From: Candidatus Nomurabacteria bacterium
GTDB lineage: Bacteria > Patescibacteriota > Minisyncoccia > Phycocordibacterales > UBA9973
Direction: 5' to 3'
DNA: 64,000 nucleotides
Assembly (NCBI GenBank): GCA_026395915.1
Contig: JAPLXU010000012.1
Location: 8,996 to 72,995, forward strand
In this document: in pieces, positions 1,622-56,433 of the stretch
Layout: each line of letters opens with the position of its first letter
How positions within the stretch are numbered: position 1 is the first letter of the stretch
Position numbers and translations under genes: made by a program
Notes under the pieces: model-generated
The model's input: the letters and a program-made list of their open reading frames with translations, nothing else
Databases searched by the model: none
What the model was told of the DNA's origin: nothing

Positions 1622-1694
1622 GCAGTTTTCAGGCCCTCCAGTCCACTCGGTTTCTGATTGGTTGAGCTTACAACAATATCGGTTTTTTCAAGGA

Positions 1695-1724
1695 GGGTCA
1701 GCCAAGATCGGCTGACCCTTTTTT
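1695..1724 (+). terminator. rho-independent terminator
   Basis: Perfect hairpin gggtcagcc-aagatc-ggctgaccc followed by TTTTTT, ~75 nt after the stop at 1621. Confidence 0.7.
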
Positions 1725-1811
1725 CGTACTTCTTCGTTAAGTCTTAATAATCATTTGATATGGTATAAGATATATAAGTCGGGTGGTTATTATTATTTTT
1801 AAAAATTATTT

Positions 1812-2429: not shown

Positions 2430-2497
2430 ATAAATTTTGGCAAAAAAACAGCGCTCCCGTGAGGGGAACGCCGGTTTTGTGATTCCTGATTCTAGGC

Positions 2498-3865: not shown

Positions 3866-4097
3866 AGTCTTGGTTTGTATTTTTCCGTTGTATACCGAAA
3901 GATGCACACACATGCACCCTGTACCGCCAAAACACACTACGTGCGTTCGGCAGTAACCTTGTAAATACTATAAATATCCACAAGGCTACTGCCGAAATAT
4001 ACAGAAAAAACAAGCAAAAGAGCTCTGTTTTCAAGGTTCTAATTCATCTAATCTTCATGAGTATTACCACGAAATTGCTTTTTTCGCAAGGGCTTTA

Positions 4098-18597: not shown

Positions 18598-20626
18598 CTC
18601 AAAAGAAAAATTAAAATTGGCAGTTCTTATTTCCAACGCAGGCACTGGCACAAACCTTCAGGCCATCATTGATGGAATCGAGAAAGACAAAATCAAGATG
18701 GAAATTTGCGCAGTAGTTTCTGATGTTTCCGATGCGGCTGGTTTGGATCGAGCGCGAAAACATAATTTAAAAATCGAAATCTGTCCGACGAAAGAAGCCC
18801 TGCTTCCGCTTTTGCAAAGATTAAATCCGGACTTTGTAGCTCTCGCCGGCTGGAAGCAGATTATTTTAGACGAAGTGATTCTCGCTTTTCCGAATAAAAT
18901 TTTGAATTTGCATCCTGGCTTGATTCCAGATAGCATTGACGGCATAGTAAAAAATCCTGATGGCACTGAAGCGCTTTGGAACAAGGGCAAGTTGACAAAT
19001 AAAGCTATTCAAAATTTCTTGGACAAAAAAGCTACTTTTGCCGGTTCAAGTATTCATTTCTTGACACTTAATTTTGATTTTGGACCGGTTTTAGGTAGAA
19101 CTTTTGAAAAAATTCAAGCCGGAGACACAGTGGATTCTCTATATGCTAGATTAAAAAATAAGGAGAACGAGCTTTATGAAGAAGTTTTAGAAAAATTAAC
19201 CTCACCCCAGCCCTCTCCTGAGAGGAGAGGGGGAATAAATAGACAAAAAATTTTAATAATTGGAAGCGGGGGACGAGAACATGCTATCGGCTGGAAAGTA
19301 GCGCAGTCACCTAGAGCAGGGCAGATTTTTTTTGCACCCGGAAATGCTGGAACGGCGGAACTGGGAACGAATGTAGCAATAGATGCGAAAGATATTTCTA
19401 AACTTTTAGAATTTGCGAAAAATGGAAAAATTAATCTGACTTTGGCTTTACCAGACGATCCGCTCGCTCTCGGCATTGTGGACGAATTTCAAAAAGCTGG
19501 TTTGCGAATCTGGGGTCCTACAAAAAGAGCCGCGCAGATCGAATGGTCAAAGGCGTTTTCAAAAGATTTCATGCGTCGACACAATTTGCCGACTGCGAAA
19601 TTTGAGATATTCAGCGATTTTGAAAAGGCGAAAAATTACGTAAAAAATCAATCATTGCCTATTGTCATCAAAGCAAGCGGGCTCGCTTTAGGAAAAGGCG
19701 TGATTATTTGTGAAACTATAAAAGAAGCGAACGAAACGCTTGAAAATATACTTGTTAAAAAAATATTTGGAGACGCGGGAAACGAAGTTGTGATAGAGGA
19801 GTTTCTTGTCGGACCAGAGATTTCCATTCATGCGTTTTCTGACGGAAAAGATTACAAAATGTTTCCGCCATCACAAGATCATAAAAAAGTCGGAGAAGGG
19901 AACACTGGACCGAATACGGGAGGCATGGGGACGATCAGCCCTTTACCGTTCGTGGATGAAAAACTTTTGAAAACTATCGAGGACACGATCGTTGCGCCGA
20001 CTTTGAAAGCTCTAGCCAAGGACAACGCGCCTTTTGTCGGAGTGCTCTATCCCGGGTTAATACTTACCAAAGATGGGCCGAAAATTTTAGAATACAACGC
20101 GCGCTTCGGTGATCCGGAAACGCAGACATACATGCGACTCTTGGAAACTGACTTACTAGATATTTTCGACGCATGCATTGATGGCACGCTGAAAAATTTA
20201 GAAATCAAATGGAGACCAAAGTCAGCCTGCACGATAGTGCTAGCTTCGGGAGGTTATCCGGGAAAATATGAAAAGGGAAAAGAAATTTTGGGAATTTCTC
20301 CCCTCCTTGTGGAGGAGGGGGTAGGGGGTGGTGATTCAGACCCCCTCTCAAATCTCCCCCTTAGCAAGGGGAGAGGTTCTCAACCACCTCGCCTTTCAGG
20401 CTCTCCTCCTTCGAAAGGAGGAGAGGACGTCGTCATCTTCCACGCTGGCACAAAGATGGAAAATAAAAATTTAGTAACGAATGGCGGAAGAGTGCTCGGA
20501 GTTTCGGCTGTGGGTAAAAATTTGCAAGAAGCGCTCAAAAAAGCCTATAAAGCAATAGAAAAAATTTCTTTTGAAGGAATGCAGTATAGAAAAGATATAG
20601 GCAAATCGGCGTTGGAATTGAAATAA
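18578..20626 (+). CDS. purD: bifunctional GAR transformylase / GAR synthetase (PurN-PurD fusion)
   Basis: N-terminal PurN pattern ('LAVLISNAGTGTNLQAII', 'NLHPGLIP'), then PurD ('ILIIGSGGREHAIGWK', ATP-grasp). Overlaps purF by 20 nt. Contains two in-frame GC-rich hairpin inserts (19199-19235 and ~20293-20430). Confidence 0.8.
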   Translation: MMSQKNNSKEKLKLAVLISNAGTGTNLQAIIDGIEKDKIKMEICAVVSDVSDAAGLDRARKHNLKIEICPTKEALLPLLQRLNPDFVALAGWKQIILDEVILAFPNKILNLHPGLIPDSIDGIVKNPDGTEALWNKGKLTNKAIQNFLDKKATFAGSSIHFLTLNFDFGPVLGRTFEKIQAGDTVDSLYARLKNKENELYEEVLEKLTSPQPSPERRGGINRQKILIIGSGGREHAIGWKVAQSPRAGQIFFAPGNAGTAELGTNVAIDAKDISKLLEFAKNGKINLTLALPDDPLALGIVDEFQKAGLRIWGPTKRAAQIEWSKAFSKDFMRRHNLPTAKFEIFSDFEKAKNYVKNQSLPIVIKASGLALGKGVIICETIKEANETLENILVKKIFGDAGNEVVIEEFLVGPEISIHAFSDGKDYKMFPPSQDHKKVGEGNTGPNTGGMGTISPLPFVDEKLLKTIEDTIVAPTLKALAKDNAPFVGVLYPGLILTKDGPKILEYNARFGDPETQTYMRLLETDLLDIFDACIDGTLKNLEIKWRPKSACTIVLASGGYPGKYEKGKEILGISPLLVEEGVGGGDSDPLSNLPLSKGRGSQPPRLSGSPPSKGGEDVVIFHAGTKMENKNLVTNGGRVLGVSAVGKNLQEALKKAYKAIEKISFEGMQYRKDIGKSALELK

Positions 20627-20647
20627 TTATAAAAAAAAGCAAAAAGA

Positions 20648-20682
20648 AAACCCGTGGCGTTTTTCAGGCGCGCACGGGGTTT
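20648..20682. terminator. bidirectional hairpin terminator between convergent genes
   Basis: Stem aaacccgtg / cacgggttt with a ~16-nt loop. T-rich on both strands. Lies between the purD stop (20626) and the stop of the minus-strand gene (20722). Confidence 0.45.
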
Positions 20683-20721
20683 CGTGATTGGTTTGGCCCG
20701 AAGGCCGATATAGAGAGGGAT

Positions 20722-22455
20722 TTACGGAGTACGTATCGACGACGATGATGGCAAACCCTCGATGCCCTCAGCGTTTTTCCAGTCTGGGTCAGCTAGACTT
20801 GATATTCCAAAACTATTTGGCGACCAAATAAGTGCTCCACCGCCACATTGTTCAACGTTGTTGGCAGTGTCTATTAGTCCGCCACACCCATTACAACAGT
20901 CACCAAGGAGCTGACTTCCCATCCAAGCGAACTGGTTGGTGACTTGAACTTCACCTCTCAATTCGAAAAAGTAGGTTGCCCCCGCCGAAATAACGATTGG
21001 TGTTTGGGCGTACATGTTTAGTACTCCCGGCGAACCGTTGAAGTTCGTAGCCGAGAATTTTTCGCCGGTGGCCAGATTGTAAAGGTTTATGTTTTGAATT
21101 GTCGCCCCTTGAAAGTTAATCCAAAGAGCAATCATGTGAATGCTTATTGAGCCACTCACATTTGCAGAAACCTTGAATTGAAGCAACCGGCCATCCATCA
21201 TTCCAGTCGACGGCAGGGTTTCCAGTGTGAATGTCGGAAATGACTTGAACACCCAAGCTCCTCCGGGCGTACGTCCATCTCCGCAGGCTTGAATTACTCG
21301 GCCTGAGTCCATTCCAATGCCAACTGTGCGGTCAGGATTGGAATCGTCAATTGCAACACCAACTTGGTGTCCGGAAACGGTTAAAGCTTCGCTGATACCG
21401 ATCGATGAAAGGTCTGCCTTGATTGTCAAGGTTTTACTTGCATTCTTCGGAATAGTGAAATGAGTTAATGGGACAAACATGTTCGTGCTCGCTGGAAAGT
21501 AACCATATCCAATTTGGGTGTTGCCATCCCAAAGGCTCAGTCTTTCGATGCAGGCCGGATCGCCGTTTATATGCAACCCAACACTTGTGAGCGACATATC
21601 CTCGTAAGACGCGCTGAACTTGAACACGCTCAATGTCACGTTAGCGCTTCCCGCTGCCACCATCTGAACATAAGGGGTCGAAGCATCGGCCTCGAATGTC
21701 AATTGGCAAGGCAAAGATTCGCGAAAGCGATAAAACGCGTGAGCATTTGTGCCGACAGGCAACCAAAGAGCAGTGTTTGTTGATGCCGCCGTAACCATGT
21801 CGCCTAACACATGCCAGTTGATGAGGTCATAGGATTCCTCGATTTGATATCGATAGCCAGTTGTCCCGTGGATAACAAAGCTTCCCATACCGCTTGTAAT
21901 CGTGAAATCTAGTTTCCCCCGATTGATCGAGGGCAACCCAAGGATTTGGATAAACGCCAGAGTCGTTGCCACCGGGGTGACTTCAACAGCGTTTCCGCTT
22001 GTTATGCCCACACATGTGATCGGGCTACCCAAATTCACCGCAAATTCCCCATGAGCATCGGACAAAATGTCGCACTTGAGTACGAGCGTTTTCACTGTAC
22101 CTTGAGTGATTATCAACATATTGCCGAAGTTGTAGGTGTATGGGAGTGTCGCTGCCATCGTGCTCAGTTGTCCAACTTCCGGATCAAACAAAGACCAGTT
22201 GACCATGAAGTCAGGCTGGCATCCGTTTTGCACTCGCAGGCCAAGCGGCATGGAAGTCACTTTGACATCCTCGTCTGACCCCATCGCGTCAAACGTGATG
22301 AGGTAAACCGTCTGCCCAGGCGCTGAGCCCGGAATCATCGGTTCGAGATTTGGTTGGTTGTTAATTGCCACATTGAGAGTTCCAGCCCCGAGGCTGGTCA
22401 ACATGGAACAAACGAGCACGAAGCTCGCGGTGAGACTGATAAGCATTTTCTTCAT
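20722..22455 (-). CDS. secreted hypothetical protein with N-terminal signal peptide; GC ~50% (higher than genome)
   Basis: 'MKKMLISLTASFVLVCSMLTSLGAG' looks like a signal peptide. 577 aa, Cys-rich C-terminal tail. No recognisable family. Confidence 0.5.
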   Translation of the reverse strand: MKKMLISLTASFVLVCSMLTSLGAGTLNVAINNQPNLEPMIPGSAPGQTVYLITFDAMGSDEDVKVTSMPLGLRVQNGCQPDFMVNWSLFDPEVGQLSTMAATLPYTYNFGNMLIITQGTVKTLVLKCDILSDAHGEFAVNLGSPITCVGITSGNAVEVTPVATTLAFIQILGLPSINRGKLDFTITSGMGSFVIHGTTGYRYQIEESYDLINWHVLGDMVTAASTNTALWLPVGTNAHAFYRFRESLPCQLTFEADASTPYVQMVAAGSANVTLSVFKFSASYEDMSLTSVGLHINGDPACIERLSLWDGNTQIGYGYFPASTNMFVPLTHFTIPKNASKTLTIKADLSSIGISEALTVSGHQVGVAIDDSNPDRTVGIGMDSGRVIQACGDGRTPGGAWVFKSFPTFTLETLPSTGMMDGRLLQFKVSANVSGSISIHMIALWINFQGATIQNINLYNLATGEKFSATNFNGSPGVLNMYAQTPIVISAGATYFFELRGEVQVTNQFAWMGSQLLGDCCNGCGGLIDTANNVEQCGGGALIWSPNSFGISSLADPDWKNAEGIEGLPSSSSIRTP

Positions 22456-22574
22456 ATTTTACTGTATCTTCTGGTTGTTTCTGTATTCTTTTGACAAAGA
22501 GGAACCTGCGCCACTCAGCGAGGCTCTCTGCCTATGATACTAGCATGACTAGGCTAAAAAGTCAAGGTTTTTCT

Positions 22575-23924
22575 CTATTTCTCCCAATTAAAGAAGTGAT
22601 TCCTGTCTGGACCGGTGCCGACGGATATTATTTTGACATCAAGGTCGGAAAGTTTGGTTTTTATATATTTTAGATACGATGCGAGCTCTTTCGAGATTTT
22701 TTTCTTGTCATTGACTCCAAAGTTAGTTTTTCCCCAACCCGGGATTTCTTCTGTTACGACACTCGAGACTTGACTCAAATAAAGTGGAAATTCTTTCCCG
22801 ATTTTTCCATTACACTTGTATCCCGTCACGACTTTAATTTTATCGCTCATGCAAATATCTGCTTTGTTTATGAAAATTTTATTCGCTCCGGAGAGACCTA
22901 TCGCGTAACGAAGCGCAAACAAATCAAGCCAACCGCACATTCTCGGACGTCCGGTGGTCGCGCCGAATTCATTTCCTGCGTCTTGGAAAAGTTTTTCGAT
23001 GGCTGGATCAGCGATTCTAGCAGGGAAGTTTCCTCCACCCACTTTCGTCGTGTAAGCTTTTATCACGCCATACACATCTCGCAAATACTTGTGAGACACG
23101 CCGAGGCCCAAGCAGACGTTTGCAGGTAGGGTATTACTGCTTGTAACATTCGGATAATCTCCAAAATCAATATCGAGCATAATGGCTTGAGCGCCTTCAG
23201 CTAAAATATTCTTTCCTTCAGCTAATCTTTTTTGGATCAAAGATGATAAATCACAAATTTGTAATTTTTTGAGTTCCTTCAAGGCATTCTGCCACTTCTC
23301 TTTTGCTTCTTTTATTTTTCCATAATCAATTTCAAATCCGTACTTTTCTTTATACATGGAAAGGAGATTCGTATGAAATTCCGAAAGGGCTGACTCTCTT
23401 TGTTCAAAGTCCGGCAACAACATATCGCCAACTAAAAGCCCCCTCCTCGCTCGGGCGTCACTGTAGGCTGGCCCGATGCCTCTCGAAGTTGTGCCTATTT
23501 TTGTTCCTGATTTATTTCTGCGATATTCGTCTGCTTGGTCCAAAAATGGATGGAAATATGAAACTAATTTTGCGCGGTTTGAAATGAAAAGTCGGGGAGC
23601 GACGTCAAAGCCTAAATTTTTTAATTGAGAAATTTCTGCGATCAAAGACACAGCATCCACTACCACGCCATTGCCAATATACAATTCTATCTTTTTTCGA
23701 AGACAACCGGAGGGGACTATATGCCCGATAAAAGTTTTGTCTCCAAATTTGATAGTGTGCCCGGCGTTCGCTCCTCCATGAAAACGCGCGACCGCGCTAT
23801 ATTTTCCACTCGAAAGAAGCTCATCTATGTTTTTGCCTTTTCCCTCATCGCCCCATTGTAGACCAACAACCGCATCAATAAATCCGTGTTTAACTTTTTT
23901 GTTTTTTAAAATTTTATTTGCCAT
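22575..23924 (-). CDS. purA: adenylosuccinate synthetase
   Basis: 'GLQWGDEGKGK' P-loop. 'GGANAGHT' and 'TTKVGGGNFP' are also present. Confidence 0.9.
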   Translation of the reverse strand: MANKILKNKKVKHGFIDAVVGLQWGDEGKGKNIDELLSSGKYSAVARFHGGANAGHTIKFGDKTFIGHIVPSGCLRKKIELYIGNGVVVDAVSLIAEISQLKNLGFDVAPRLFISNRAKLVSYFHPFLDQADEYRRNKSGTKIGTTSRGIGPAYSDARARRGLLVGDMLLPDFEQRESALSEFHTNLLSMYKEKYGFEIDYGKIKEAKEKWQNALKELKKLQICDLSSLIQKRLAEGKNILAEGAQAIMLDIDFGDYPNVTSSNTLPANVCLGLGVSHKYLRDVYGVIKAYTTKVGGGNFPARIADPAIEKLFQDAGNEFGATTGRPRMCGWLDLFALRYAIGLSGANKIFINKADICMSDKIKVVTGYKCNGKIGKEFPLYLSQVSSVVTEEIPGWGKTNFGVNDKKKISKELASYLKYIKTKLSDLDVKIISVGTGPDRNHFFNWEK

Positions 23925-25448: not shown

Positions 25449-27026
25449 ATGAACAACATTCAAATTCTTATCGTAGATTATGGCTCACAATATACGCTCG
25501 TCATCGGGAGAATCTTGCGCGAACTTGGTGTGCGAAGTCTAATACTACCTCCAAAAAAAGTCGATGAATGGCTAAAAAATAATACTCCAAAAGCAGTTAT
25601 ACTTTCTGGCAGTAATTTTAGTGTGCATCAAAAAGGAGCGCCGGAGCTTCCAAAGTTACTCGGTATCGCTCTTCACAAAAGTCATGAAGTAAAAAGTAAA
25701 TATCAAATTTTAGGAATTTGTTATGGCATGCAACTTCTCGCTCATAAACTCGGAGGAAAAGTTGCGCGTCCACTCGCTCATCGCGAATATGGTCCGTCCA
25801 TCGTTACTTTAGATACTAAACATCCGCTTTTTGCCGGCGTAACGAAAAAAACAGAAGTCTGGGCTAGTCATGGTGATACTGTGATAAAACTTCCCAAAGG
25901 TTTTGCTTCTATTGCCACTTCAGAAGGTATCGCAGCCATGAGCAACAAAGATAATCGTGTGCTGGGAATTCAATTTCATCCCGAAGTTGTCGACACAAAG
26001 GAGGGGAGAAAAATTTTGCAAAACTTTTTAGAACTTTCAAAATGCGAGAAAGATTGGAACCCGACAGATTTAATTCACCAGATTCAAAAAGAAGTTCTCG
26101 ATATCGTAAATAAAGATGGAAATAAAAAAAATGTTGTTCTCGGCGTTTCTGGCGGGGTTGATTCCACAACTCTCTCTGCTATTCTCGCTCCCGTTTTGGG
26201 TAAAAGGCTTTTTTGCGTGGCTATAGACACAGGCGGACTTCGAGAAGGCGAACTTTCAGAACTGAAAGCGAATATGAAAAGCGTCCTTTCGCAAGAACGG
26301 TTTTTGCGAAAGGCAAATCTCGTTGTGATTGATGCCAGCGAAGAATTTGTAAAAAATATCGGTAAAACGATTGACGGTGAAGAAAAACGCGCAAAGTTTC
26401 GTGAAATCTATCAAAAAATATTTGAAGAGCAAATAAAAAAACACAATGCCGGTTTCATCGCGCAGGGAACTCTCGCGACGGATATTATTGAAAGTGGCAA
26501 AGCAGGGAAGTCGGCAATGATCAAAACTCACCACAACGTCGGCCTGAAATGGAAAGTGGAAGATTTGCATCCACTTAGAAATTTATTCAAGTACGAAGTT
26601 CGAGAACTTGCTCGCGTGTTACGTCTTCCATCTGCTATTTCCGAACGAAATCCATTTCCGGGTCCGGGTCTCTATCTGCGGGTTGTTGGCGCGCCAGTAT
26701 CAAAAGAAAATATCGAATTAGTGAGAGAAGCGGACAAAACCGTCGCTGATATTCTTAAAAAACACAATTTGAATAAAAATATTTCCCAACTCATTGTTGC
26801 TCTCCTCGGCGTGAATTCTGTCGGCGTGAAAGGGGACGAGAGAGTGTATGGGCATTCGCTAGCCGTGCGAGCTGTGCAAACTTCCGACTTTATGACAGCT
26901 AAAGGCTATTATTTTCCGGAAGAAGTCATGAATGAAATCACCAGCGCGCTCACAAAGCATAAAAATATTGTAAGAGTATTTTTTGATATGACTCCAAAAC
27001 CCCCCGCCACGACAGAATTTGAATAA
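25449..27026 (+). CDS. guaA: GMP synthase (glutamine-hydrolysing)
   Basis: Start chosen at the internal Met (MNNIQILIVDYGSQYT..). GATase domain, then 'VSGGVDS' ATP-PPase motif. Divergent from guaB with only a ~27-bp spacer. Confidence 0.9.
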   Translation: MNNIQILIVDYGSQYTLVIGRILRELGVRSLILPPKKVDEWLKNNTPKAVILSGSNFSVHQKGAPELPKLLGIALHKSHEVKSKYQILGICYGMQLLAHKLGGKVARPLAHREYGPSIVTLDTKHPLFAGVTKKTEVWASHGDTVIKLPKGFASIATSEGIAAMSNKDNRVLGIQFHPEVVDTKEGRKILQNFLELSKCEKDWNPTDLIHQIQKEVLDIVNKDGNKKNVVLGVSGGVDSTTLSAILAPVLGKRLFCVAIDTGGLREGELSELKANMKSVLSQERFLRKANLVVIDASEEFVKNIGKTIDGEEKRAKFREIYQKIFEEQIKKHNAGFIAQGTLATDIIESGKAGKSAMIKTHHNVGLKWKVEDLHPLRNLFKYEVRELARVLRLPSAISERNPFPGPGLYLRVVGAPVSKENIELVREADKTVADILKKHNLNKNISQLIVALLGVNSVGVKGDERVYGHSLAVRAVQTSDFMTAKGYYFPEEVMNEITSALTKHKNIVRVFFDMTPKPPATTEFE

Positions 27027-39991: not shown

Positions 39992-41278
39992 TTAAGGCAG
40001 TTTTGGTAAATAAAAAAGTGGGTCGAGATATGCGCCTATTGGAGCTATAGGCATCGTGTATATTTTGCCTCCGCAGGTAGTGCTTGGTCTTTTTTGGACA
40101 CTTACAGCACTACTGACATAAACTGCTACATGCAGATGGGGTCCTGTCGTATGCCCTGTATTGCCACTATAGCCAACTATTTCACCGCGTTTTACTTGTT
40201 GTCCTTCGGATACTTTGATAAGCGATAAATGCCCATAAGCGCTGGCTAAGCCATCATTATATTTTATAAATATCCATTTGCCAAATGATGTGCCGACGCA
40301 GGTATCGTCAGTATTACCAAAACCCAAGACGGTTCCATCGGCCATTGCTTTAACTGGAGTGCCAATGGAAGCTCTGAAATCAACTCCACTATGGCTTCCC
40401 GAAGCATAGAGTCTTACTGAATCAACGGTCTTTCCAAACATTTGCGTAATGTGTATGCTATCAAGTGGCCAACTCAAAACCCCACCTCCGGGTAATTTTG
40501 AAGGGTCTAAGGTGAATTGTAATTGCGATTCATAATCTCGCAATTCTTTTTCAAACGCATCTTTTTTTGCGAGCCTATCTTTAAGTAATTTTTGATAATT
40601 TGTTTCACTATTTTTTGTTTGAGCAAGAAGTTTATTCTTTTCATTGGCATTCTGAATCACAATTTTTTGCTGATCGGAAAGTTCTGACTTGAGCGCGGTA
40701 AGTTCATTTTTTGCGTTGATCGTTTCTTTCCTTGTATCCTCCAAATCGTTTTTTGTTTGTTTCAAAAGATTTGTGTTTTTCGTAATGCTTTCCCGCACGG
40801 TTATGATGTTGTCTATGTCATTCCAAATTAATGTAAAATTATCGAGTGATAAAAGGGTCTCCGTTATACCGCTTCGTTCATATTCATCTGTTTGTTTTAT
40901 TACGGCTTTAATTGATTCTAGATTGTTTGTAATAACGTTTTCTTTAATATTTATGTCAGAGCTCAAGCTTTCAATCGTGAGATTTGTTTTGTCGATTTTT
41001 TTTTGAGTGACATTAATATCAGCTACTAATTTTTTTCTGGTTAGATCCAACTCTTTGATTGATTTGCTCAAAGAGCTTTTTTGATTTCCTAAAGTATCAA
41101 GCTGAGACTGATAAGAAGCTATTTCTTGTTCCAAACTGCTTATGTCGGCACTCTTTTTATCTATCTGATTCTTTAAATCAGTAGCAGTTTGAGCATCTGA
41201 AAAAGCGATTGGAATCAAAAGTATCGTTACCGTTAAAATTATCTTAAACAACTTTTTGTAAGCGAGATAAAGTTTCAT
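39992..41278 (-). CDS. M23-family peptidoglycan metalloendopeptidase with N-terminal coiled coil (EnvC-like)
   Basis: Long coiled-coil region. C-terminal 'GHTTGPHLHVAVY' M23 LytM motif. Signal/TM at the N-terminus. Confidence 0.8.
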   Translation of the reverse strand: MKLYLAYKKLFKIILTVTILLIPIAFSDAQTATDLKNQIDKKSADISSLEQEIASYQSQLDTLGNQKSSLSKSIKELDLTRKKLVADINVTQKKIDKTNLTIESLSSDINIKENVITNNLESIKAVIKQTDEYERSGITETLLSLDNFTLIWNDIDNIITVRESITKNTNLLKQTKNDLEDTRKETINAKNELTALKSELSDQQKIVIQNANEKNKLLAQTKNSETNYQKLLKDRLAKKDAFEKELRDYESQLQFTLDPSKLPGGGVLSWPLDSIHITQMFGKTVDSVRLYASGSHSGVDFRASIGTPVKAMADGTVLGFGNTDDTCVGTSFGKWIFIKYNDGLASAYGHLSLIKVSEGQQVKRGEIVGYSGNTGHTTGPHLHVAVYVSSAVSVQKRPSTTCGGKIYTMPIAPIGAYLDPLFYLPKLP

Positions 41279-42662
41279 TTTTTCCTAAGATTTCAGCAAT
41301 AATAAATGGATCGGGAGATCGATCGAGTCCGGACAAAGCAAAACGAACAGGGTGAAGCACTTCTCCCCTGCTCTCTAATTTTTCTGCTACTGCCATCAGC
41401 GCAGTTTTGATATTTTCTTTATCAAATTTTTCTTCAGCTACTTTTTCTAGAGTTTCGATTGCTAATTTAATATTGCTGATAATTTTTTCTTGTGAAATAT
41501 TTTTATAAACAAGTTTTGTTTTGTCTATGTCAGGCACCTTGTAAAAGAAATCGAGCTCCCCTCTCTCGATCATTTCTTTTACATCACACCACTTTGAAAT
41601 TCGCTCAAAAATAATCGGGACGAGTTTCTTATTCTTCATTGAGTCAGGCAGGTACTCCAAAATGTTTTTCTCAACTTCTTCTTTTGGAAGCAATTTCATG
41701 TGCTCTTTGTTCATCCAGTCCAGCTTGTCATCGCTCCATTTGGCTCCAGAACGCTGAATTTTGCCCAAATCAAAGGCTTTTATTAATTCCTCTCTCGTGT
41801 ATACCTCTTTTTCTCCACCGGGGTTAAAACCGAGAAAAGCGAGATAATTTAACATTGCTTCTGGCAAGTATCCTTCTTTTTCGTAGTCCAAAATATCTTT
41901 CGCGCCATCGCGTTTGCTTAATTTTTTTGTCCCAGTAGCTCCCATGATTGGAGGCGTCGTCACAAAAAAAGGTGGCTTGACACCTAACGCTTCATACACA
42001 GACAAAAATTTCGGCGTAGAAGAAATAAATTCCTGTCCTCGCACGACGTGAGTGACACCCATTTCAATGTCATCCACAATGTGCGCAAAGTTATATGTCG
42101 GGTATCCGTCACCTTTGATTAAAATAAAATCATCCAAGGCTTCCGGTCCAGCGGAAAGTCCTCCCCAGACAATATCATTCCAAACTGTTTTTTTTAATTC
42201 AGACACTTTGAATCGAAGCGGTTTTGTTCCGTCCCACGTGGGAGGATTTTCTGGTCTATGCTCGCGATAAAGGAAAGGCTTTTTTTCTGAATCAGCTTTT
42301 TGTCTGAATTTTTCAATTTCTTCTTCAGTATATGGATCAGCATAAGCAAAACCTTTTTTAACCAAGATTTCGGCGTATTTTTTATAAATATCTAACCTTT
42401 GTGACTGAATATAAGGAGCATTTGGTCCATCTTTTTCCGGCCCAAAATCCCAATCAAGCCCAAGCCAACGCAAGGATTTCATAATGTGTTCAATCGAACC
42501 TGCGACTTCTCTTTCCTTGTCGGTATCTTCGATACGCAAAATAAATGCCCCGTTATTTTTTCGAGCCCAAAGCCAAGCATATAAAGCTGTACGTATATTC
42601 CCTACGTGTATAAAACCAGTAGGCGAAGGCGCGAATCTTGTTGTGATTTTGTTGTCTGACAT
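41244..42662 (-). CDS. gltX: glutamate--tRNA ligase
   Basis: Start at the internal Met (MSDNKITTRFAPSPTGFIHVGN..). 'HIGN' and 'KLSKR' class-I motifs. Overlaps the M23 gene by ~35 nt. Confidence 0.9.
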   Translation of the reverse strand: MSDNKITTRFAPSPTGFIHVGNIRTALYAWLWARKNNGAFILRIEDTDKEREVAGSIEHIMKSLRWLGLDWDFGPEKDGPNAPYIQSQRLDIYKKYAEILVKKGFAYADPYTEEEIEKFRQKADSEKKPFLYREHRPENPPTWDGTKPLRFKVSELKKTVWNDIVWGGLSAGPEALDDFILIKGDGYPTYNFAHIVDDIEMGVTHVVRGQEFISSTPKFLSVYEALGVKPPFFVTTPPIMGATGTKKLSKRDGAKDILDYEKEGYLPEAMLNYLAFLGFNPGGEKEVYTREELIKAFDLGKIQRSGAKWSDDKLDWMNKEHMKLLPKEEVEKNILEYLPDSMKNKKLVPIIFERISKWCDVKEMIERGELDFFYKVPDIDKTKLVYKNISQEKIISNIKLAIETLEKVAEEKFDKENIKTALMAVAEKLESRGEVLHPVRFALSGLDRSPDPFIIAEILGKNETLSRLQKVV

Positions 42663-42690
42663 GATTATATAATAGCATAAAAATGAAAAC

Positions 42691-42850
42691 TCGCTAAAAT
42701 ACAATTCAAATACAACCCCTTATAAAATACCTTCAAGAACAATTCAGATGCAACCCCCTATTTCCCCCTTATCAGGGGGACTAAAATACCGAATACTGTG
42801 CTTTCGTATTTTCCCTCCCCTGATAAGGGGAGGATTAAGGAGGGGTTGAA
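42691..42850. repeat. composite GC-rich palindromic repeat, left copy (plus a partial upstream duplication) flanking the DUF559 gene
   Basis: ctaaaat-caattc..CAACCCC-(ccccc ttatca ggggg hairpin)-spacer-(cctcccc tgataa ggggagg hairpin)-GGGGTTG. The 7-bp terminal inverted repeat is CAACCCC/GGGGTTG. Confidence 0.7.
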
Positions 42851-43227
42851 TTCATGCATTTAATTTTTCCAATCAAATCCTCAGCAACACTCTCCGTGTC
42901 TGCCAGAATTTCTTCATTCGTGTATCTTATTATTTTTAATCCAAATTTCTGTTTTAATAAGTTATCTCTTTCTTCATCTCTTGTCTTTTGAAAAGTATGT
43001 ATTTTTCCATCAATTTCTATTGCAAGACCAAGTTTTGAGCAGTAAAAATCTACAACAAAGTGATCTATCGGTTTTTGTCTGGTAAATTTTAAGTTCGCTA
43101 GTTTTTTATTTTTTAAAATTTTACCCCAAAAAACCTTTTCAGCTTCAGTCGTTTTTTTTCGTAACTCTCTAGCGCGAGAAACTAAATTTTTATCATATGG
43201 AATATATGGGATATTGTATTTTTGCAT
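42835..43227 (-). CDS. DUF559 endonuclease-domain protein (Vsr-like fold family)
   Basis: 130 aa with the 'ARELRKKTTEAEKVFW' N-terminal motif typical of DUF559. The C-terminus (..KCMNSTPP) reads into the left repeat. Confidence 0.6.
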   Translation of the reverse strand: MQKYNIPYIPYDKNLVSRARELRKKTTEAEKVFWGKILKNKKLANLKFTRQKPIDHFVVDFYCSKLGLAIEIDGKIHTFQKTRDEERDNLLKQKFGLKIIRYTNEEILADTESVAEDLIGKIKCMNSTPP

Positions 43228-43242
43228 GAAGTTAATTATAAC

Positions 43243-43406
43243 CTAAAATGCAATTCGGTAGATAACTCAAACGCAACCCCCTTTTATCCCCCTTATCAGG
43301 GGGGGCTAAATACCGTTTCGTGCCTTTCGCAAGAACCGTTCTTGCAAAAACTTGCGAAAACGATCGCATTTTATTCCTCCCTGATAAGGGAGGTTAGGAG
43401 GGTTGA
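43243..43406. repeat. composite GC-rich palindromic repeat, right copy (direct orientation relative to the left copy)
   Basis: Same architecture as 42691-42850, with an extra internal palindrome gcaagaac-c-gttcttgc. Confidence 0.7.
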
Positions 43407-43454
43407 ATTTAGTTTTTTAGCACAATGATGGTTCTTGGGGAAATTTTAATTTGG

Positions 43455-44457
43455 TCAGCGGACGCAACGGAAGTAGCAACTAGTGATCTTATTGAAGCCA
43501 CCACTTGCGTTGCCACTGCTGAAACCTACGTACATAGCGCTCGTGGAACTAGCAGGTCGAGAAGTAGATGACCAGTAGTTGCTACTCGATGCAAAAGTGG
43601 GAAAATAGGTTACATTGGTAAATGGCACACTCGCGACTCCAAAGTCAACCAGACTGTAAAGCTCATATATATTCGGCAGGCGCCAACCGCTTCCGGGAAG
43701 CGCATCAGTATTAGCGTTGCAGTAGGTAAGCGCGTTTGCCCAAGTTACTGTCACGGCTGAACCAATCTCACAGTTAGTACCACTCAAACCAGCGGAGCAT
43801 TTTTGCCAGACAAGACCGGTAGAATTGTCTGTAATAGTGCCATCATTGTTGTCAGTGTAAGAGCGAGCTGTACCTTTTAATAACTCTCCATCTTGACCGG
43901 TGCCGGAGCAAGTTACGACAAAGCCTCCCGTGTCATAACAAATTGTTTGATTAGTTTTTAATAATCCGGCAGATCTGGCGTTTCCCGTCACTCCAAAAAT
44001 AGAAACATTATTTTTGATATCCCGTCACTCCAAAAATAGAAACATTATTTTTGATATTCCCAGCCTGAAGATTTGTATCTCCGGCAGTAGCAGTTTTAGA
44101 TCCAGAATAGATCCCATTTGGAATAGTAAAGGTAAGTAAGCCATTGCCTCCTGTGACATTAGAGCCAGCGCTTGGGATAGAGTTGTATATATCATCTAAT
44201 GTGTGCATTGTGGAACCGGGAGCTCCTGAAGGAGAATTGAATGAAGTGTTCTTTGTGGCAGAGGTGCCATTTGCTAGTTTTTGATAGATTTGTTCTAACG
44301 TATACATTCTGCCTGAAGTTGATGGAGAGCCTGGGGAATCTATGTTGCCTGCGTGGACGAAGACGTAGACTAGAGTGACAGAGAGGACTATGCTACAGAT
44401 TCCTGTTGTGAGCTTGTAGAGAAAGGAATTTGATTTTGGGTTGGGTTTATTAGTCAT
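43455..44457 (-). pseudogene. DUF1566-domain surface protein split by a 37-bp tandem duplication
   Basis: Two adjacent ORFs (44008-44457 and 43455-43991). Removing one copy of the 37-nt unit (43984-44020 = 44021-44057) joins them in frame (..SIFGVTG|NARSAGLLK..). 'GWRLPNIYEL' is DUF1566-like. Confidence 0.6.
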
Positions 44458-44506: not shown

Positions 44507-45637
44507 TTATTTCTCATGACTCAAAGCTATATCAACCAAGGCTTGAGCTATCTTCATCGCCGGATCAGGCTTCGCAAAAGCTTTGGCATTTTGCGCCATA
44601 ACTTTATACCCTTCTTTATCCTCAGTTATCCTTTCTATTTCTGAGCTCAAAATATTTGCAGTCATATTCATTTCTTCGACAACGCTACATGCTCCCGCTC
44701 GAGCGTAATTGAAAGCGTTTTTCTTTTGGTGATCGCCATTTGTATTTGTAATAGGTATCAAAATAGATGGCACGCCCCAAGACGCTATCTCGAACAGCAT
44801 CGAACCAGCCCGAGAAATAATAATTGTTGCTGCGCCAGCTGCCATTTTCATAGCCAAAGGATTCAAAAAAGATTTAGACAAATATCTGACTTTGTATTGA
44901 TTATCAACTAGTACCACTTCGGCTCTTTCCGTAGCCATTTCAAAATTCTTAACTCCTGTTTGATGAATAATTTGATAATTATTCACGAGTCTCGGCAAAG
45001 CGTCCAAGATAGTATTGTTGATAAGTTCTGCGCCTTGAGAACCCCCCAAAACCAAAATCACCGGAATTTCTTCTTCAAGTTTAAAATAGTCGAGCGCGTC
45101 CTTGCGAGAAGCAGGATTTTCTATCTCGGTTCTTATTGGCTGACCCGTCCAAGCAACCCGTTTAGGAGGAAAATATTCTGTCGCTTCTTCGAAAGAAACA
45201 GCTATTTTCTTTGCAAAATGTCCAGCCCATTTGTTGACTCTACCAGGCGCAGAATCAGACTCATGAATGACGACAGGGATTCGTAAAATTCTAGCGGCAA
45301 GAATTGTCGGAAACGACGCGTATCCCCCTTTACCGAAAACAACGTCAGGATATATTGAGAAAATCTTATAAACCGCGTTCAAAACACCGAAAAAAGTTTT
45401 GAACACATCGAGAAAATTTTTAAAGGAAAAATAAGTGCGCATTTTGCCGGCATTTATTTCTTCATATAAAAGCCCATTTTCAAAAAGCATTTCCTTGTCG
45501 TAAGGACTATCGGAAATATAATAAAGCTTAGCTCCTAATATATTTTCCTCATCAATTATTTTATTTACTTTTTGGGCGATAGCGATGATTGGATAAAAAT
45601 GTCCGCCTGTCCCTCCGCCTGTAAAAACTATTTTCAT
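44507..45637 (-). CDS. murG: UDP-N-acetylglucosamine--N-acetylmuramyl-(pentapeptide)-PP-undecaprenol GlcNAc transferase
   Basis: 'MKIVFTGGGTGGHFYP' N-terminus. GT28 architecture. Confidence 0.9.
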   Translation of the reverse strand: MKIVFTGGGTGGHFYPIIAIAQKVNKIIDEENILGAKLYYISDSPYDKEMLFENGLLYEEINAGKMRTYFSFKNFLDVFKTFFGVLNAVYKIFSIYPDVVFGKGGYASFPTILAARILRIPVVIHESDSAPGRVNKWAGHFAKKIAVSFEEATEYFPPKRVAWTGQPIRTEIENPASRKDALDYFKLEEEIPVILVLGGSQGAELINNTILDALPRLVNNYQIIHQTGVKNFEMATERAEVVLVDNQYKVRYLSKSFLNPLAMKMAAGAATIIISRAGSMLFEIASWGVPSILIPITNTNGDHQKKNAFNYARAGACSVVEEMNMTANILSSEIERITEDKEGYKVMAQNAKAFAKPDPAMKIAQALVDIALSHEK

Positions 45638-53751: not shown

Positions 53752-56433
53752 GTGAAAAAGAAAAATGATAAAAAAAGCGTCCGCCTCTCCAAAAACGTCG
53801 TTCCTGTTGAATACGACATACAATTACAACCGGACTTGGACAATTTTACTTTTGAAGGCGTTGAAACTATCACCCTCTCTATTCTGAAACCGACTAAAAC
53901 ACTAACTCTCCATTCAAAAGAAATTGAAATAGAAACAGCTTCCATAAACAAAGATTCTCAAAAAATGTTCGCAAAAATTTCTTATGACGAGAAAAATGAA
54001 ACTGTGACTTTTGCTTTTCCTGAAACTATTCTTTCAGGAAAAACTAAACTGACCATAGTTTTCAGAGGAATTCTCAATGACAAAATGCGAGGGTTTTATA
54101 GGAGCAAATATACTATCAAAGAAAAAGACTACCATTTAGCGACCACACAATTTGAAGCTACCGATGCGCGAAGAGCTTTCCCTTGTTTTGATGAACCAGC
54201 GCAAAAAGCCATTTTTAATGTTTCTCTCATTGTCCAAAAAGGCAAGACGGCTATCTCAAATACTTTGCCAGTATCTGTCGCGGAACACGATGCTGAATAC
54301 GAAATAGTAAAATTTTCTCCAACGCCGAAAATGTCCACTTACTTGCTCGCATTTATTGTAGGAGACTTTGAATGTCTGGAATCAAAAACTACTCCCACCA
54401 CCTCGTCCTTCAGACACTCCCCCTCAGGCAGGGGGAGAAGTATACGAGTTCGTGTCTTTACCACTCCAGGAAAAAAACATCAAGCCAAATTCGCGCTTGA
54501 TTGCGCGATAAAAACTTTAGAATTTTACGAAAAATATTTCGACATCGCCTATCCTCTGCCCGTGCTCGACATGATAGCTATCCCAGACTTTACAGCCGGA
54601 GCAATGGAAAATTGGGGCGCAATCACGTATCGCGAAAGCGCTATCTTGGTCGATGATGATCATTCTTCGCTCTCAAACAAACAATGGGTGGCACTCATAA
54701 TTGCTCACGAAATATCGCATCAGTGGTTCGGTAATCTAGTGACAATGGAATGGTGGACTCATTTGTGGTTGAACGAGGGATTTGCTTCTTATCTTGAATA
54801 TTTGGCCGTCGATAAACTTTTTCCAAAATGGGATATTTGGACACAATTTATTACTAGCGAACTCTCCTCAGCTTTACGTTTAGATTCTCTCCTTAATACC
54901 CACCCGATAGAAATACCAGTGCATCATCCCGCAGAAATCGGCGAAATATTCGATGAAGTGTCTTATTCAAAAGGAGCGTCAATCATCAGAATGCTTGCGG
55001 ACTTTTTGGGAGAAAAAGATTTTCGAGACGGTTTAAGATTTTACTTAAAAAAGCATAGTTATAAAAATACGGAAACTATCCATCTCTGGCAAGCGTTTGA
55101 AAAAGTTTCAAAAAAGCCCAAAAAAAATGTGACAAAAATGATGCAAAATTGGACTTCAAAACCCGGCTATCCAATGATAAAAGCAGAGATTATAAATGAA
55201 AAATTAAATTTGTCGCAAGAGAGATTTTTTAGCAGTCCGATATCAAAGGCAAAAGCAAAAGAAAAAACCTTGTGGCAAATACCCGTTTCTATAAAAAATA
55301 GCAACACTGCGCGAAAATATCTTTTTAGCCGACTTTCGCAGGCTGTCGAGCCGAGAATGAGCGATTTTTCAGCAGAAAAATACGCGACGGCAAAAAAGAC
55401 ATTTTCGCGCAGTGACTATCAAAAAATAAATATTAGTGAAACAGGATTCTATCGAGTAAATTACTCAAAGGAACTTTTAGAAAAATTTAAAATACAAATT
55501 GAAAAAAAGTTATTACCAGCGCAAGACAGACTTGGAATCATCAGAGATCTTTTTGCCTTAGCTGAAGCTGGAATTGTTTCAACAAAAGATACGTTAGAGT
55601 TTTTAGCAAGCTATAAAAATGAAGACAATTACACAGTTTGGCTTGAACTTGCAACGGGTCTCGGACGAATTGAACAACTTTTTGCAAAAGAATCGGTTAA
55701 GAAAGAAGAGCTAAACAACCTTATCTTAAATTTATTTTCTCCTCTTGCAAACAAACTCGGTTGGGAAAAAAAGAAAGGAGAAACTCACACCGACGTGCTC
55801 TTGCGCTCACTCGTCATCACTCGAGCCGGACGTTCTGGTGATATAAAAATAATTGCTGAAGCGAAAAATAAATTCACGGCCATGCAAAAAGGTAAACACA
55901 TTGATCCAGACGTTCGTGGTGCTGTCTATGCGACTATCGCAAGAAACGGTGGAATGAAAGAATATCAAACTCTTCTCAAGCGATATAAAGAAGAAACCTT
56001 ACATGAAGAAAAAAACAGGATTGGAAACACTTTGGGAGATTTTCAAGAAACTAAAATTTTGAAACTTGTTTGCGAATTCGCTATGTCAAAATATGTCAGG
56101 GCCCAAAATACTATCGCCATCATTTCGGCTGTTGGAGCAAATCCGTTAGGCAGAGATATCTGGCTAAATTTTGTTCAAAAAAATTGGAAGACACTTGTCT
56201 CGCGTTATGGCGACGGTGGTCATACGCTAGCACGACTTGTGAAAGCCATAGGCGGAAGCGCAGAAGAAAAACACTTAAAATCATTCAAAAAATTCTTCAA
56301 AACTCATTTTGCGCCTGGAGCCGAGAGAGCGATAGAACAAGTATTGGAACGTCTTGAGAGCAATATCGCTTGGTTGAGAAGAGAAACGAAAAAGCGTCGC
56401 GGGAAACCCACGACGCTTGTGGCCAAAAATTGA
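53752..56433 (+). CDS. pepN: aminopeptidase N (M1 family)
   Basis: 'GAMENWG' exopeptidase motif. 'HEISHQWFGNLVTMEWW..NEGFA' zinc site. Contains an in-frame GC-rich hairpin insert at ~54400-54442. Confidence 0.9.
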   Translation: MKKKNDKKSVRLSKNVVPVEYDIQLQPDLDNFTFEGVETITLSILKPTKTLTLHSKEIEIETASINKDSQKMFAKISYDEKNETVTFAFPETILSGKTKLTIVFRGILNDKMRGFYRSKYTIKEKDYHLATTQFEATDARRAFPCFDEPAQKAIFNVSLIVQKGKTAISNTLPVSVAEHDAEYEIVKFSPTPKMSTYLLAFIVGDFECLESKTTPTTSSFRHSPSGRGRSIRVRVFTTPGKKHQAKFALDCAIKTLEFYEKYFDIAYPLPVLDMIAIPDFTAGAMENWGAITYRESAILVDDDHSSLSNKQWVALIIAHEISHQWFGNLVTMEWWTHLWLNEGFASYLEYLAVDKLFPKWDIWTQFITSELSSALRLDSLLNTHPIEIPVHHPAEIGEIFDEVSYSKGASIIRMLADFLGEKDFRDGLRFYLKKHSYKNTETIHLWQAFEKVSKKPKKNVTKMMQNWTSKPGYPMIKAEIINEKLNLSQERFFSSPISKAKAKEKTLWQIPVSIKNSNTARKYLFSRLSQAVEPRMSDFSAEKYATAKKTFSRSDYQKINISETGFYRVNYSKELLEKFKIQIEKKLLPAQDRLGIIRDLFALAEAGIVSTKDTLEFLASYKNEDNYTVWLELATGLGRIEQLFAKESVKKEELNNLILNLFSPLANKLGWEKKKGETHTDVLLRSLVITRAGRSGDIKIIAEAKNKFTAMQKGKHIDPDVRGAVYATIARNGGMKEYQTLLKRYKEETLHEEKNRIGNTLGDFQETKILKLVCEFAMSKYVRAQNTIAIISAVGANPLGRDIWLNFVQKNWKTLVSRYGDGGHTLARLVKAIGGSAEEKHLKSFKKFFKTHFAPGAERAIEQVLERLESNIAWLRRETKKRRGKPTTLVAKN

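Follow-up and report, generated by a model that had tools for sequence, protein, structure and literature searches.

Hairpin repeats of the BoxC/PIT/TM kind beside DUF559 nuclease genes: a candidate partnership seen in Candidatus Nomurabacteria and other bacteria

The dispersed bacterial repeats called BoxC, PIT (potential intrastrand triplex) or TM (triplex motif) have been in the literature since the 1990s, reportedly with work by Bachellier in that decade and by Hoyne and Maher in 2000. They are abundant and remarkably conserved between phyla, and to our knowledge they still lack an assigned function, an explained origin and a protein partner. DUF559, for its part, is a very widespread nuclease family for which we know of no established role. 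The present analysis concerns a DUF559 gene that lies between two repeats of this kind, upstream of gltX, in 64,000 nt of a Candidatus Nomurabacteria genome (contig JAPLXU010000012.1; the whole stretch is called the window), and the recurrence of the same arrangement in other genomes. Neither the kind of repeat nor the DUF559 family is new in itself; what seems new is the link of the two, and a full-text search of the literature found no paper linking DUF559 or YcjD to BoxC, PIT or TM repeats.

The names BoxC, PIT and TM (TMECO in E. coli) followed one another in that order, and the TMECO consensus reads CCCTCNCCC N3-6 GGGNGAGGG N3 GGGNGAGGG (PMC4666352). E. coli MG1655 carries 23 TMECO copies, which at five loci form an inverted pair joining two subtypes, type A and type B, and the TM loci are rearrangement hot spots (PMC4666352). 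TMECO copies were reported to be always intergenic, with mobility functions never found nearby (Holder et al. 2015, PMC4666352), and in E. coli neither promoter nor terminator activity was reported for PIT elements (PMC4666352, which cites work of the Maher laboratory). Like the BoxC/PIT/TM elements of E. coli, Synechocystis and others, the repeats of the window consist of a pyrimidine arm, a loop of 3-6 nt, a purine arm, a loop of 3-5 nt and a mirror purine arm; they are G/C-rich, dispersed and highly conserved, often form inverted pairs of two subtypes on opposite strands, and are accompanied neither by target duplications nor by a nearby transposase. They differ in their shorter stems (5-7 triads vs 9), in the TGATAA/TTATCA loops and in having conserved CAAC/GTTG ends in addition; protein genes contain some of the copies in frame, whereas TMECO is reported always to be intergenic, and a link to DUF559 genes is not mentioned in the literature on the class (PMC4666352).

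Two further systems invite comparison. With REP/REPIN-RAYT systems the locus shares short GC-rich palindromes, single or in inverted doublets with a variable spacer, a conserved chromosomal enzyme gene that is inherited vertically and has repeats of its own type on both sides, co-variation of repeat type with enzyme clade, and the absence of target-site duplication. The enzyme here, however, is a 130-aa Vsr-like PD-(D/E)XK nuclease (DUF559 is its only Pfam match) and not an IS200/IS605-type HUH/Y1 transposase; the repeat has homopurine/homopyrimidine arms and a mirror third block, and its conserved end is CAAC/GTTG instead of the GTAG/CTAC at the repeat foot. With the Vsr-like or EDxHD homing endonucleases, such as I-Bth0305I, the protein shares the catalytic fold (TM-score 0.76 on target), and the genes are alike in being small and free-standing, in having 5' hairpins and in being able to sit inside other genes; free-standing genes of that group sit in 'fractured genes' (PMC2677866, PMC3239194). 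The window gene differs in that it is syntenic, shows housekeeping-like conservation and is flanked by a dispersed repeat family, its product lacks the N-terminal DNA-binding extension of I-Bth0305I, and it lies in neither an intron nor an intein.

A DUF559 gene between two paired hairpin elements

The order on the minus strand is murG (44507-45637), two DUF1566/Lcl_C-type open reading frames (ORFs; 44008-44457 and 43455-43991), DUF559 (42835-43227) and gltX (41244-42662). Elements A and B, which belong to one repeat family and have the same orientation, lie on either side of DUF559. The features are as follows, in window coordinates.

42835-43227, minus strand: DUF559 nuclease gene, Vsr-like PD-(D/E)XK, 130 aa (Pfam PF04480, E = 4.8e-30)
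42751-42848, unstranded: element A, 98 nt, inverted pair of triplex-type hairpin motifs with ends CAACCCC...GGGGTTG, 3' of DUF559 and 5' of gltX
Element A in full, plus strand: CAACCCCC-TATTT-(CCCCC TTATCA GGGGG)-34 nt-(CCTCCCC TGATAA GGGGAGG)-ATTAA-GGAGGGG-TTG
42751-42758, plus strand: outer end of element A, CAACCCCC
42764-42779, plus strand: hairpin of element A, CCCCC-TTATCA-GGGGG
42780-42813, unstranded: variable centre of element A, 34 nt, unlike the centre of element B
42814-42833, plus strand: hairpin of element A, CCTCCCC-TGATAA-GGGGAGG, followed by ATTAA and GGAGGGG-TTG to 42848
42751-42779, minus strand: half of element A, CCCCC-TGATAA-GGGGG-AAATA-GGGGG-TTG (a pyrimidine and a purine block around a loop, then a second loop and the mirrored purine block)
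42814-42848, plus strand: half of element A, CCTCCCC-TGATAA-GGGGAGG-ATTAA-GGAGGGG-TTG, the third block mirroring the purine arm exactly, which fits the BoxC/TM scheme (PMC4666352)
43274-43405, unstranded: element B, 132 nt, same family and orientation as A, 3' of the DUF1566 gene and 5' of the DUF559 start codon
Element B in full, plus strand: CAACCCCC-TTTTAT-(CCCCC TTATCA GGGGGGG)-70 nt-(CCTCCC TGATAA GGGAGG)-TTA-GGAGGG-TTG
43274-43281, plus strand: outer end of element B, CAACCCCC
43288-43305, plus strand: hairpin of element B, CCCCC-TTATCA-GGGGGGG
43306-43375, unstranded: variable centre of element B, 70 nt, with small hairpins of its own
43376-43393, plus strand: hairpin of element B, CCTCCC-TGATAA-GGGAGG, followed by TTA and GGAGGG-TTG to 43405
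43274-43305, minus strand: half of element B, CCCCCCC-TGATAA-GGGGG-ATAAAA-GGGGG-TTG
43376-43405, plus strand: half of element B, CCTCCC-TGATAA-GGGAGG-TTA-GGAGGG-TTG
42694-42707, minus strand: 14-mer GAATTGTATTTTAG, between element A and the gltX start codon, with a copy at 43243-43256
43243-43256, minus strand: 14-mer GAATTGCATTTTAG, the second copy, 16 nt 5' of the DUF559 start codon
42702-42719, minus strand: solitary duplicate of an element outer end and its flank (GGGGTTGTATTTGAATTG), the exact 18-mer pattern recurring at 42740-42757

Every half-element follows a single plan, in which a homopyrimidine arm, a loop and a homopurine arm are followed by a short loop and the mirror of the purine arm; the spacers before the mirror block measure 3-6 nt here (GGGGAGG-ATTAA-GGAGGGG, GGGAGG-TTA-GGAGGG and GGGGG-AAATA-GGGGG). 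Read in this way, the halves of elements A and B have BoxC/PIT/TM architecture. Each pair joins two subtypes, one with a T/A-interrupted stem and one with a pure C/G stem, and this holds for A, for B and for the compared loci L007, L014, L058 and L148. The 14-mer CCCCTTATCAGGGG, with up to two mismatches, has nine matches in the window against 0.10 expected, a count that none of 100 shuffles reaches, and on either strand the folding of A and B departs from that of shuffled sequence by z = -4.4 to -8.4 (element A, -50.3 kcal/mol, z = -5.1; element B, -63.3 kcal/mol, z = -8.4). The 64 kb hold six single motifs and just two motif pairs, the full elements A and B, and their sole DUF559 gene lies between these two. 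Element B ends 46 nt 5' of the DUF559 ATG. At the other side the ORF ends ATG AAT TCA ACC CCT CCT TAA, so that 14 nt (42835-42848), four sense codons and the stop, lie within element A.

What an earlier sequence-only reading of this DNA had described is borne out, with small corrections: two same-orientation repeat copies bracket the 130-aa ORF, as the sequence, the motif statistics, the folding scores and the Pfam match agree; the repeat encodes the last codons of the protein; and the cassette lies between the DUF1566 gene and gltX, in accordance with the Pfam assignments (Lcl_C/DUF1566 upstream, gltX downstream). Its direct repeats of ~160 bp were rightly assigned to one family and orientation but not rightly measured, since A has 98 nt and B 132 nt; the similarity of A and B is confined to the arms (31 nt, 93.5%) and the centres, of 34 and 70 nt, are unrelated, which makes them two family members and not a 160-bp duplication. 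The proposed 7-bp terminal inverted repeats CAACCCC/GGGGTTG are found in A, but B has CAACCC/GGGTTG. A ctaaaat-caattc leader does precede both copies, but it is specific to this genome and forms no part of the element in relatives. The partial third copy exists but is better placed at 42702-42719 than at 42708-42731, as a tandem duplicate, 38 nt away, of the outer end and flank at 42740-42757; its pattern, GGGGTTGyATyTGAATTG, has five matches with up to three mismatches against 0.61 expected. Exact matches of the 14-mer GAATTGYATTTTAG occur in the window at 42694-42707 and 43243-43256 only, 3' of both elements on the coding strand; it is missing from the equivalent place in relatives.

Other possible likenesses of the elements came to little. 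A 25-nt similarity between the centre of element B and a palindrome of guaA (26291-26315) falls on a coding palindrome and was judged coincidental. The Rfam scan of the window at gathering thresholds returned tRNA only, and the E-value scan of 42600-43500 gave sub-threshold matches only (RAGATH-19, with 23.8 bits against a cutoff of 85.6, Yfr17 and U4atac). The hairpin CCCC-CUGAUAA-GGGG (42820-42827 and 43381-43388, with the equivalent loops on the other strand) is shaped like the anticodon arm of tRNA-Ile(GAU), with a 7-nt loop, U33 and a purine at 37; mimicry was rejected, because the loop varies among related elements (TGACAA, AGAATT and others) and the likeness is probably a coincidence.

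The DUF559 protein itself matches PDB entry 3HRL at E = 2.5e-11 and, under the cutoff, the YcjD family of NCBIfam. Its AlphaFold model (pLDDT 78.8) matches 3HRL (NGO0050), the catalytic domain of I-Bth0305I, the nuclease domain of PvuRts1I/AbaSI and, more weakly, Vsr; in Foldseek the I-Bth0305I structure 3R3P is retrieved with probability 1.00 and a TM-score of 0.76 on target, and the Vsr structures with E = 0.28-1.6. The protein has no match to the Vsr family (PF03852), whose members normally have a Dcm-type methyltransferase as partner, at E <= 0.01, and its gene's immediate neighbours are gltX and the DUF1566 gene. Residues D60, E71, D73 and H77 are invariant across 26 DUF559 homologues, which makes it likely that the protein is an active nuclease. 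Homologues are rare on phages (2/50,697) and plasmids (29/72,556), and against defence-system and phage families the protein gives weak partial matches at most. In two metagenome contigs (L156, 1420-3774, and L175) a DUF559 domain is fused to DNA methyltransferase domains (N6_N4_Mtase; Eco57I/MmeI-type), which suggests that other DUF559 lineages work in restriction-modification contexts.

Spread of the repeats and their association with DUF559 genes

The association was followed into other genomes from the side of the protein and from the side of the repeat. At loci unrelated to murG-gltX, DUF559 has the same hairpin flanks in L008, L148 and L058, and in L008 it stands exactly between a left half and a right half. 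Hairpin density was measured for 61 small DUF559 genes, selected on the protein alone among the matches listed, with 152 kb of DNA as control. Up to 160 nt from the gene ends there are 4.9 pyrimidine-first GC hairpins per kb, and beyond 300 nt 0.11 per kb, so that the density at DUF559 ends is ~44-fold above that of the surrounding DNA of the same contigs. In the same sample 26 of 52 genes have a perfect hairpin of at least 6 bp on both sides, with loops that are often reverse-complementary, and nearly every small DUF559 gene has pyrimidine-arm/purine-arm hairpins of its own. Of 26 homologues, more than half have T-P-P or T-P as their last residues, for which the CAACCCCTCC end codes, or continue into a hairpin (..PLIRGI).

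The type of hairpin varies with the protein. Among 80 metagenome loci sampled by protein similarity only (38-73% identity, among the matches listed), the exact TTATCA/TGATAA type stands beside the two closest proteins only. In a neighbour-joining tree hairpin types cluster by protein clade; hairpin 7-mers are shared by 40% for proteins less than 30% divergent and by 6-9% for the rest, and only 3 of 500 permutations reach the observed correlation between hairpin and protein. For example, another Nomurabacteria contig (JAPLXV010000015.1, L073) carries at ~5990-6560 a 37%-identical DUF559 paralogue with an identical ~50-nt palindrome of another type on both sides, GACCCCTACCCAA-CCTCCCCC-TTAGTAA-GGGGGAGG-AGAAA-GGAGGGGGTC, and the same contig also has a TTGTCA/TGATAA-type element at 726-801.

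From the side of the repeat, an exact-pattern scan of one genome per GTDB species found the same half-element at 120 or more loci (taken as 8-kb loci) in many phyla, usually within the same bipartite element of 70-77 nt. The hosts include Patescibacteria, Peregrinibacteria, Poribacteria, Nitrospinota, Nitrospirales, Gallionella, Sideroxydans, Sulfuricella, Desulfuromonadaceae, Zixibacteria and Paludibacter. At the 120 loci listed, 1,405 ORFs have the motif no more than 1.5 kb away, and the family that recurs most among them is DUF559, with seven loci in several phyla. Judged by all these comparisons, the placement of DUF559 beside hairpin elements is not accidental.

Conservation of the arms is high. 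L007, L008 and L148 have the 29-mer CCCCCTGATAAGGGGGATTTAGGGGGTTG, of the type of the 42751-42779 half of element A, without a difference; several Poribacteria loci match its last 28 nt exactly, and the 28-mer CCCCTGATAAGGGGGATTTAGGGGGTTG is identical between Paceibacteria and Poribacteria. The 29-nt arm is shared unchanged between species with synonymous sites close to saturation. Direct repeats of 2-6 nt at the ends were found in at most one (0-1) of 43 unique elements, which equals the shuffle expectation; target-site duplications outside the CAACCCC/GGGGTTG ends, for which the sequence-only reading had proposed a search, are therefore missing, and this fits a non-DDE-transposase mechanism. 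In Poribacteria (L032, L038, L040, L053, L056, L069 and others) the right half-element ends a longer repeat of ~130 nt, present in many copies per genome, with tatggtgaattagagaaataagtagacatttgccaataac before the half-element and gttgtgcattgggagtgtctaagtaattct after it.

At murG-gltX the DUF559 gene is found in at least three other Paceibacteria species (L007, L014-L019 and L149) with the same hairpins flanking it and with 56-80% identity of the protein; the contigs L001-L006, from Logan, represent the same strain as the window and bring no further information. Identities to the window and layouts around the gene are as follows.

Window: full pair on each side
L007: DUF559 80%, GltX 76%, MurG 75%; left half upstream, full pair and solitary right half downstream
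L014: DUF559 74%, GltX 67%, MurG 76%; full pair on each side
L149: DUF559 56%, GltX 35%, MurG 51%; left half, gene, right half

The identity of DUF559 tracks that of its neighbours MurG and GltX, the ratio of non-synonymous to synonymous change (dN/dS) is 0.04-0.27 with synonymous sites near saturation, and the gene is present at this place in all four species compared, no sporadic loss being seen there. On this evidence DUF559 at murG-gltX is an old, vertically inherited resident under strong purifying selection. It had been supposed that comparison of murG..gltX might reveal DUF559 and its repeats as an insertion; the gene is instead shared with the relatives, and the extra DNA of the window is the pair of DUF1566 genes, which are missing from the murG-DUF559 spacer of the relatives. 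All four relatives that have the gene there carry the repeats, and the counter-example named in the sequence-only reading, DUF559 at this place without repeats, was not found among them. Among the strains L008-L013 and L014-L019 no recent gain or loss of an element was found, and the only indel is a 155-nt tandem duplication in an unrelated gene of L009.

A complete DUF559 domain with left and right hairpin motifs at its junctions also occurs within leucyl-tRNA synthetase (LeuRS) genes of metagenome contigs (L163, 2047-5310; L185, 2041-5310; L190, 1474-4908), where it is inserted in frame between ..NWIGRSxGAxVxF and ISVFTTRPDTIFG.., that is, between the catalytic core and the editing domain. 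The strictly intergenic placement of TMECO is broken in the window as well, by motifs in purL, in purN-purD and in an M1 peptidase gene and by the overlap of element A with the DUF559 end. In purL (ORF 10008-12905) a left-type motif, ACCCCTCC-CAA-CCCTCCCC-TTATCAA-GGGGAGGG, lies in frame at 11780-11830 inside FGAM synthase and encodes ..QTPPNPPLIKGRAKGE..; it looks like an in-frame insertion of the kind known from Rickettsia palindromic elements (RPE). The ORF 18578-20626 is a purN-purD fusion with motifs at 19200-19235 and 20290-20430: an E. coli-like motif, CCTCACCCC-AG-CCCTCTCC-TGAGA-GGAGAGGG, stands exactly at the PurN|PurD junction, and between GARS_A and GARS_C come three further hairpins whose stems are of other types; all of them are in frame. 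In the M1 aminopeptidase ORF (53752-56433), CTCCCCC-TCAGGCA-GGGGGAG is found in frame at 54395-54440, in the linker between the N-terminal and catalytic domains. The likeness to RPE lies in palindromic repeats being tolerated in frame in conserved proteins (purL, purD, M1 peptidase and LeuRS here); RPE differ in being longer (~100-150 bp) and AT-rich, and are not known outside Rickettsia or with an associated nuclease gene.

E. coli K-12 offers a degenerate case in ycjD, which we take to be its only annotated DUF559 gene. The stop codon of ycjD lies within a degenerate hairpin (..TCA CCC TCT CCC TGA), and TMECO no. 9 of Holder et al. (1,351,239-1,351,204) lies 168 nt 3' of the gene in matching orientation; between them (L228, 7150-7430; NC_000913.3, ~1351150-1351430) a ~50-nt duplicate of the ycjD 3' end is followed by a degenerate purine-block remnant and then by TMECO no. 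9. The ycjD region is present in ~62% of 5,426 E. coli genomes. Among cyanobacteria, the module takes the form pair-DUF559-pair-pair, with AATTCT/AGAATT loops, on a Pseudanabaena plasmid, and left motif-DUF559-right motif on a Synechocystis plasmid.

Explanations of the association

On balance we lean towards a cognate partnership of the DUF559 nuclease and the hairpin repeats, which would resemble REP/RAYT but employ a Vsr-like PD-(D/E)XK enzyme, with the nuclease presumably acting on the hairpins. What speaks for it has been observed directly: the module of hairpin motifs around a nuclease gene, its gene-less derivatives scattered through genomes, hairpin types that co-vary with protein clades, vertical descent under strong constraint of both gene and arms, and the lack of target duplications. 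The simplest form of the module is left motif, gene and right motif, and its dispersed gene-less form left motif, short centre and right motif. The nuclease would recognise the hairpin type that belongs to it, probably in a motif that is single-stranded or has been extruded into a hairpin or a cruciform; on extrusion the two subtypes would pair with two mismatches, G·T and A·C, five bp from the loop, recalling the substrate of Vsr. It would nick or cut near the CAAC/GTTG boundary. Recombinational or template-switching repair would then keep the copies alike and convert the nuclease gene along with them, and now and then it would give rise to new copies, some of them in frame within genes. More tentatively, and with rather more doubt than belief, DUF559 proteins may be the missing enzymes of BoxC/PIT/TM repeats in general, that is, structure-specific Vsr-like nucleases that nick their own hairpin or triplex motif and so let host repair copy the motifs to further sites and homogenise them, taking the nuclease gene with them.

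Several points weigh against such a partnership. Most motif copies are far from DUF559, and 112 of the 120 8-kb loci, among the matches listed, are without it. The ~38% of E. coli genomes that have no ycjD at sapF-fabI keep a median of 19 motif copies, so that the repeats persist without ycjD at that site. The correlation of hairpin with protein is modest (rho = -0.08) and confounded by host relatedness. Finally, strict vertical inheritance together with housekeeping-like conservation could mean that DUF559 has a host function unrelated to the spread of the repeats.

The main rival, which we regard as unlikely though worth taking seriously, is that DUF559 is a free-standing, selfish nuclease gene of the homing type that landed in the centre of pre-existing hairpin pairs, while the repeats spread or arise by other means. 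Its closest characterised structural relative is the homing endonuclease I-Bth0305I, and Vsr-like free-standing homing endonucleases are known (PMC2677866); in L008, L149 and L229 the gene is framed exactly by a left and a right motif, ycjD occurs in only ~62% of E. coli genomes, its 3' end is duplicated in K-12, and the module is found in frame within LeuRS. The murG-gltX gene, however, has been kept over deep divergence, with identity tracking that of its neighbours and dN/dS below 0.3, unlike the usual cycle of gain, decay and loss; no pair of empty and filled sites was found, and the gene is rare on the phages and plasmids counted above. Nor does homing account for hairpin types that go with protein clades, except where the hairpins are recognised by the nuclease, in which case homing merges with the proposed partnership. 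Both would share the key step of motif recognition by the nuclease. The earlier suggestion that the repeats are the borders of a small mobile nuclease cassette fares accordingly: a hairpin-DUF559-hairpin module does exist at the other locus of L008 and in LeuRS, but at murG-gltX it is an old resident.

It is improbable that the hairpins act in cis to control or insulate a nuclease gene that may be toxic, whether by stabilising the transcript, by attenuating translation or as terminators, with similar hairpins elsewhere being unrelated. In L007, L008, L148 and L149 the GGGAGG purine arm of the upstream hairpin does lie 5-15 nt before the start, at the position of a ribosome-binding site and locked in a stem, and for free-standing endonuclease genes it has been suggested that hairpins on the 5' side hold translation down (PMC2677866). 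The upstream element of the window, on the other hand, ends 46 nt before the ATG. Hairpin terminators, as the sequence-only reading had also offered, are not supported, in view of the absence of a T-tract after either element on the coding (minus) strand, of a number of terminator-like sites no different from chance (two, both in the centre of element B, against 1.0 +/- 1.0), and of the PIT elements of E. coli, members of the class reported to be without promoter or terminator activity (PMC4666352). Moreover, many genomes contain dispersed copies of these elements, also in frame within enzymes, and the mirror third block and outer CAAC/GTTG ends would be superfluous for such roles.

Simple coincidence, whereby palindromic elements pile up in tolerant spacers and a short dispensable gene happens to have two of these, is very improbable indeed. 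In its favour, species differ in the elements that they have at the locus, the TM loci of E. coli are prone to rearrangement as hot spots (PMC4666352), and most copies are not near DUF559; yet this would not account for the ~44-fold enrichment at DUF559 ends relative to neighbouring genic and intergenic DNA of the same contigs, for DUF559 being the top recurrent neighbour family among the matches listed, for the only two full elements of 64 kb flanking the only DUF559 gene, for a stop codon inside the element in several phyla or for a hairpin type that tracks protein clade, and the strong purifying selection on DUF559 indicates that the gene is not dispensable junk. The related suggestion of a MITE-like landing on both sides of the gene holds insofar as the family is dispersed over many phyla and its content differs by species, but fails on the missing target-site duplications and the non-accidental placement of DUF559. 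With MITEs (transposable elements of the miniature inverted-repeat type) derived from insertion sequences the elements share terminal inverted repeats, small size and the existence of a version that has these ends and carries a gene; they differ in having neither target-site duplication nor DDE transposase and in that the ends are themselves hairpins.

An integron-like cassette, with the palindromes as attC-type sites and DUF559 as cargo recently inserted between murG and gltX, is scarcely credible and was rejected on internal geometry, synteny and in-ORF copies: GTTGAAT and ATTCAAC at the outer ends fit the attC core sites GTTRRRY and RYYYAAC, and 98 and 132 nt fall in the attC length range, but the terminal stem has the AAC/GTT triplets at its outer instead of its inner end, a hairpin-centre-hairpin layout that includes mirror purine blocks takes the place of R''-L''...L'-R', the same gene holds the same place in species with 35-76% identical GltX, single motifs of this BoxC/TM-like family lie in frame inside genes, and no cassette array is present.

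Neighbouring features and significance

Three further observations concern the surroundings of the locus. A perfect 37-nt tandem duplication at 43983-44056 seems to split one DUF1566/Lcl_C-type gene into 44008-44457 and 43455-43991, and could be a frameshift or an assembly artefact. Just 5' of the gltX start, outside the repeat element, TATGCTAynAT is conserved in three species (window, 42665-42680; L007, 4740-4756; L014, 4464-4480), possibly as an extended -10 promoter giving a near-leaderless mRNA. The G+C content is 0.46-0.53 at window positions 1-4000 and 20000-23000 against ~0.37 elsewhere in the window, and neither region contains rRNA or another Rfam family.

The association between DUF559 and the repeats, which crosses phyla and co-varies, offers a candidate partner both to orphan repeats and to DUF559, and the question is open to simple experiments in E. 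coli, with YcjD and TMECO DNA. If confirmed, the partnership would be a second and mechanistically different case of the REP/RAYT principle, and would account for the in-frame hairpin insertions in enzymes of candidate phyla. If DUF559 proteins are indeed the missing enzymes of BoxC/PIT/TM repeats, these would form a transposase-free class of nuclease-driven repeat, able to settle in frame in essential genes such as that of LeuRS, and the finding that TM loci are hot spots of genome rearrangement would be accounted for.

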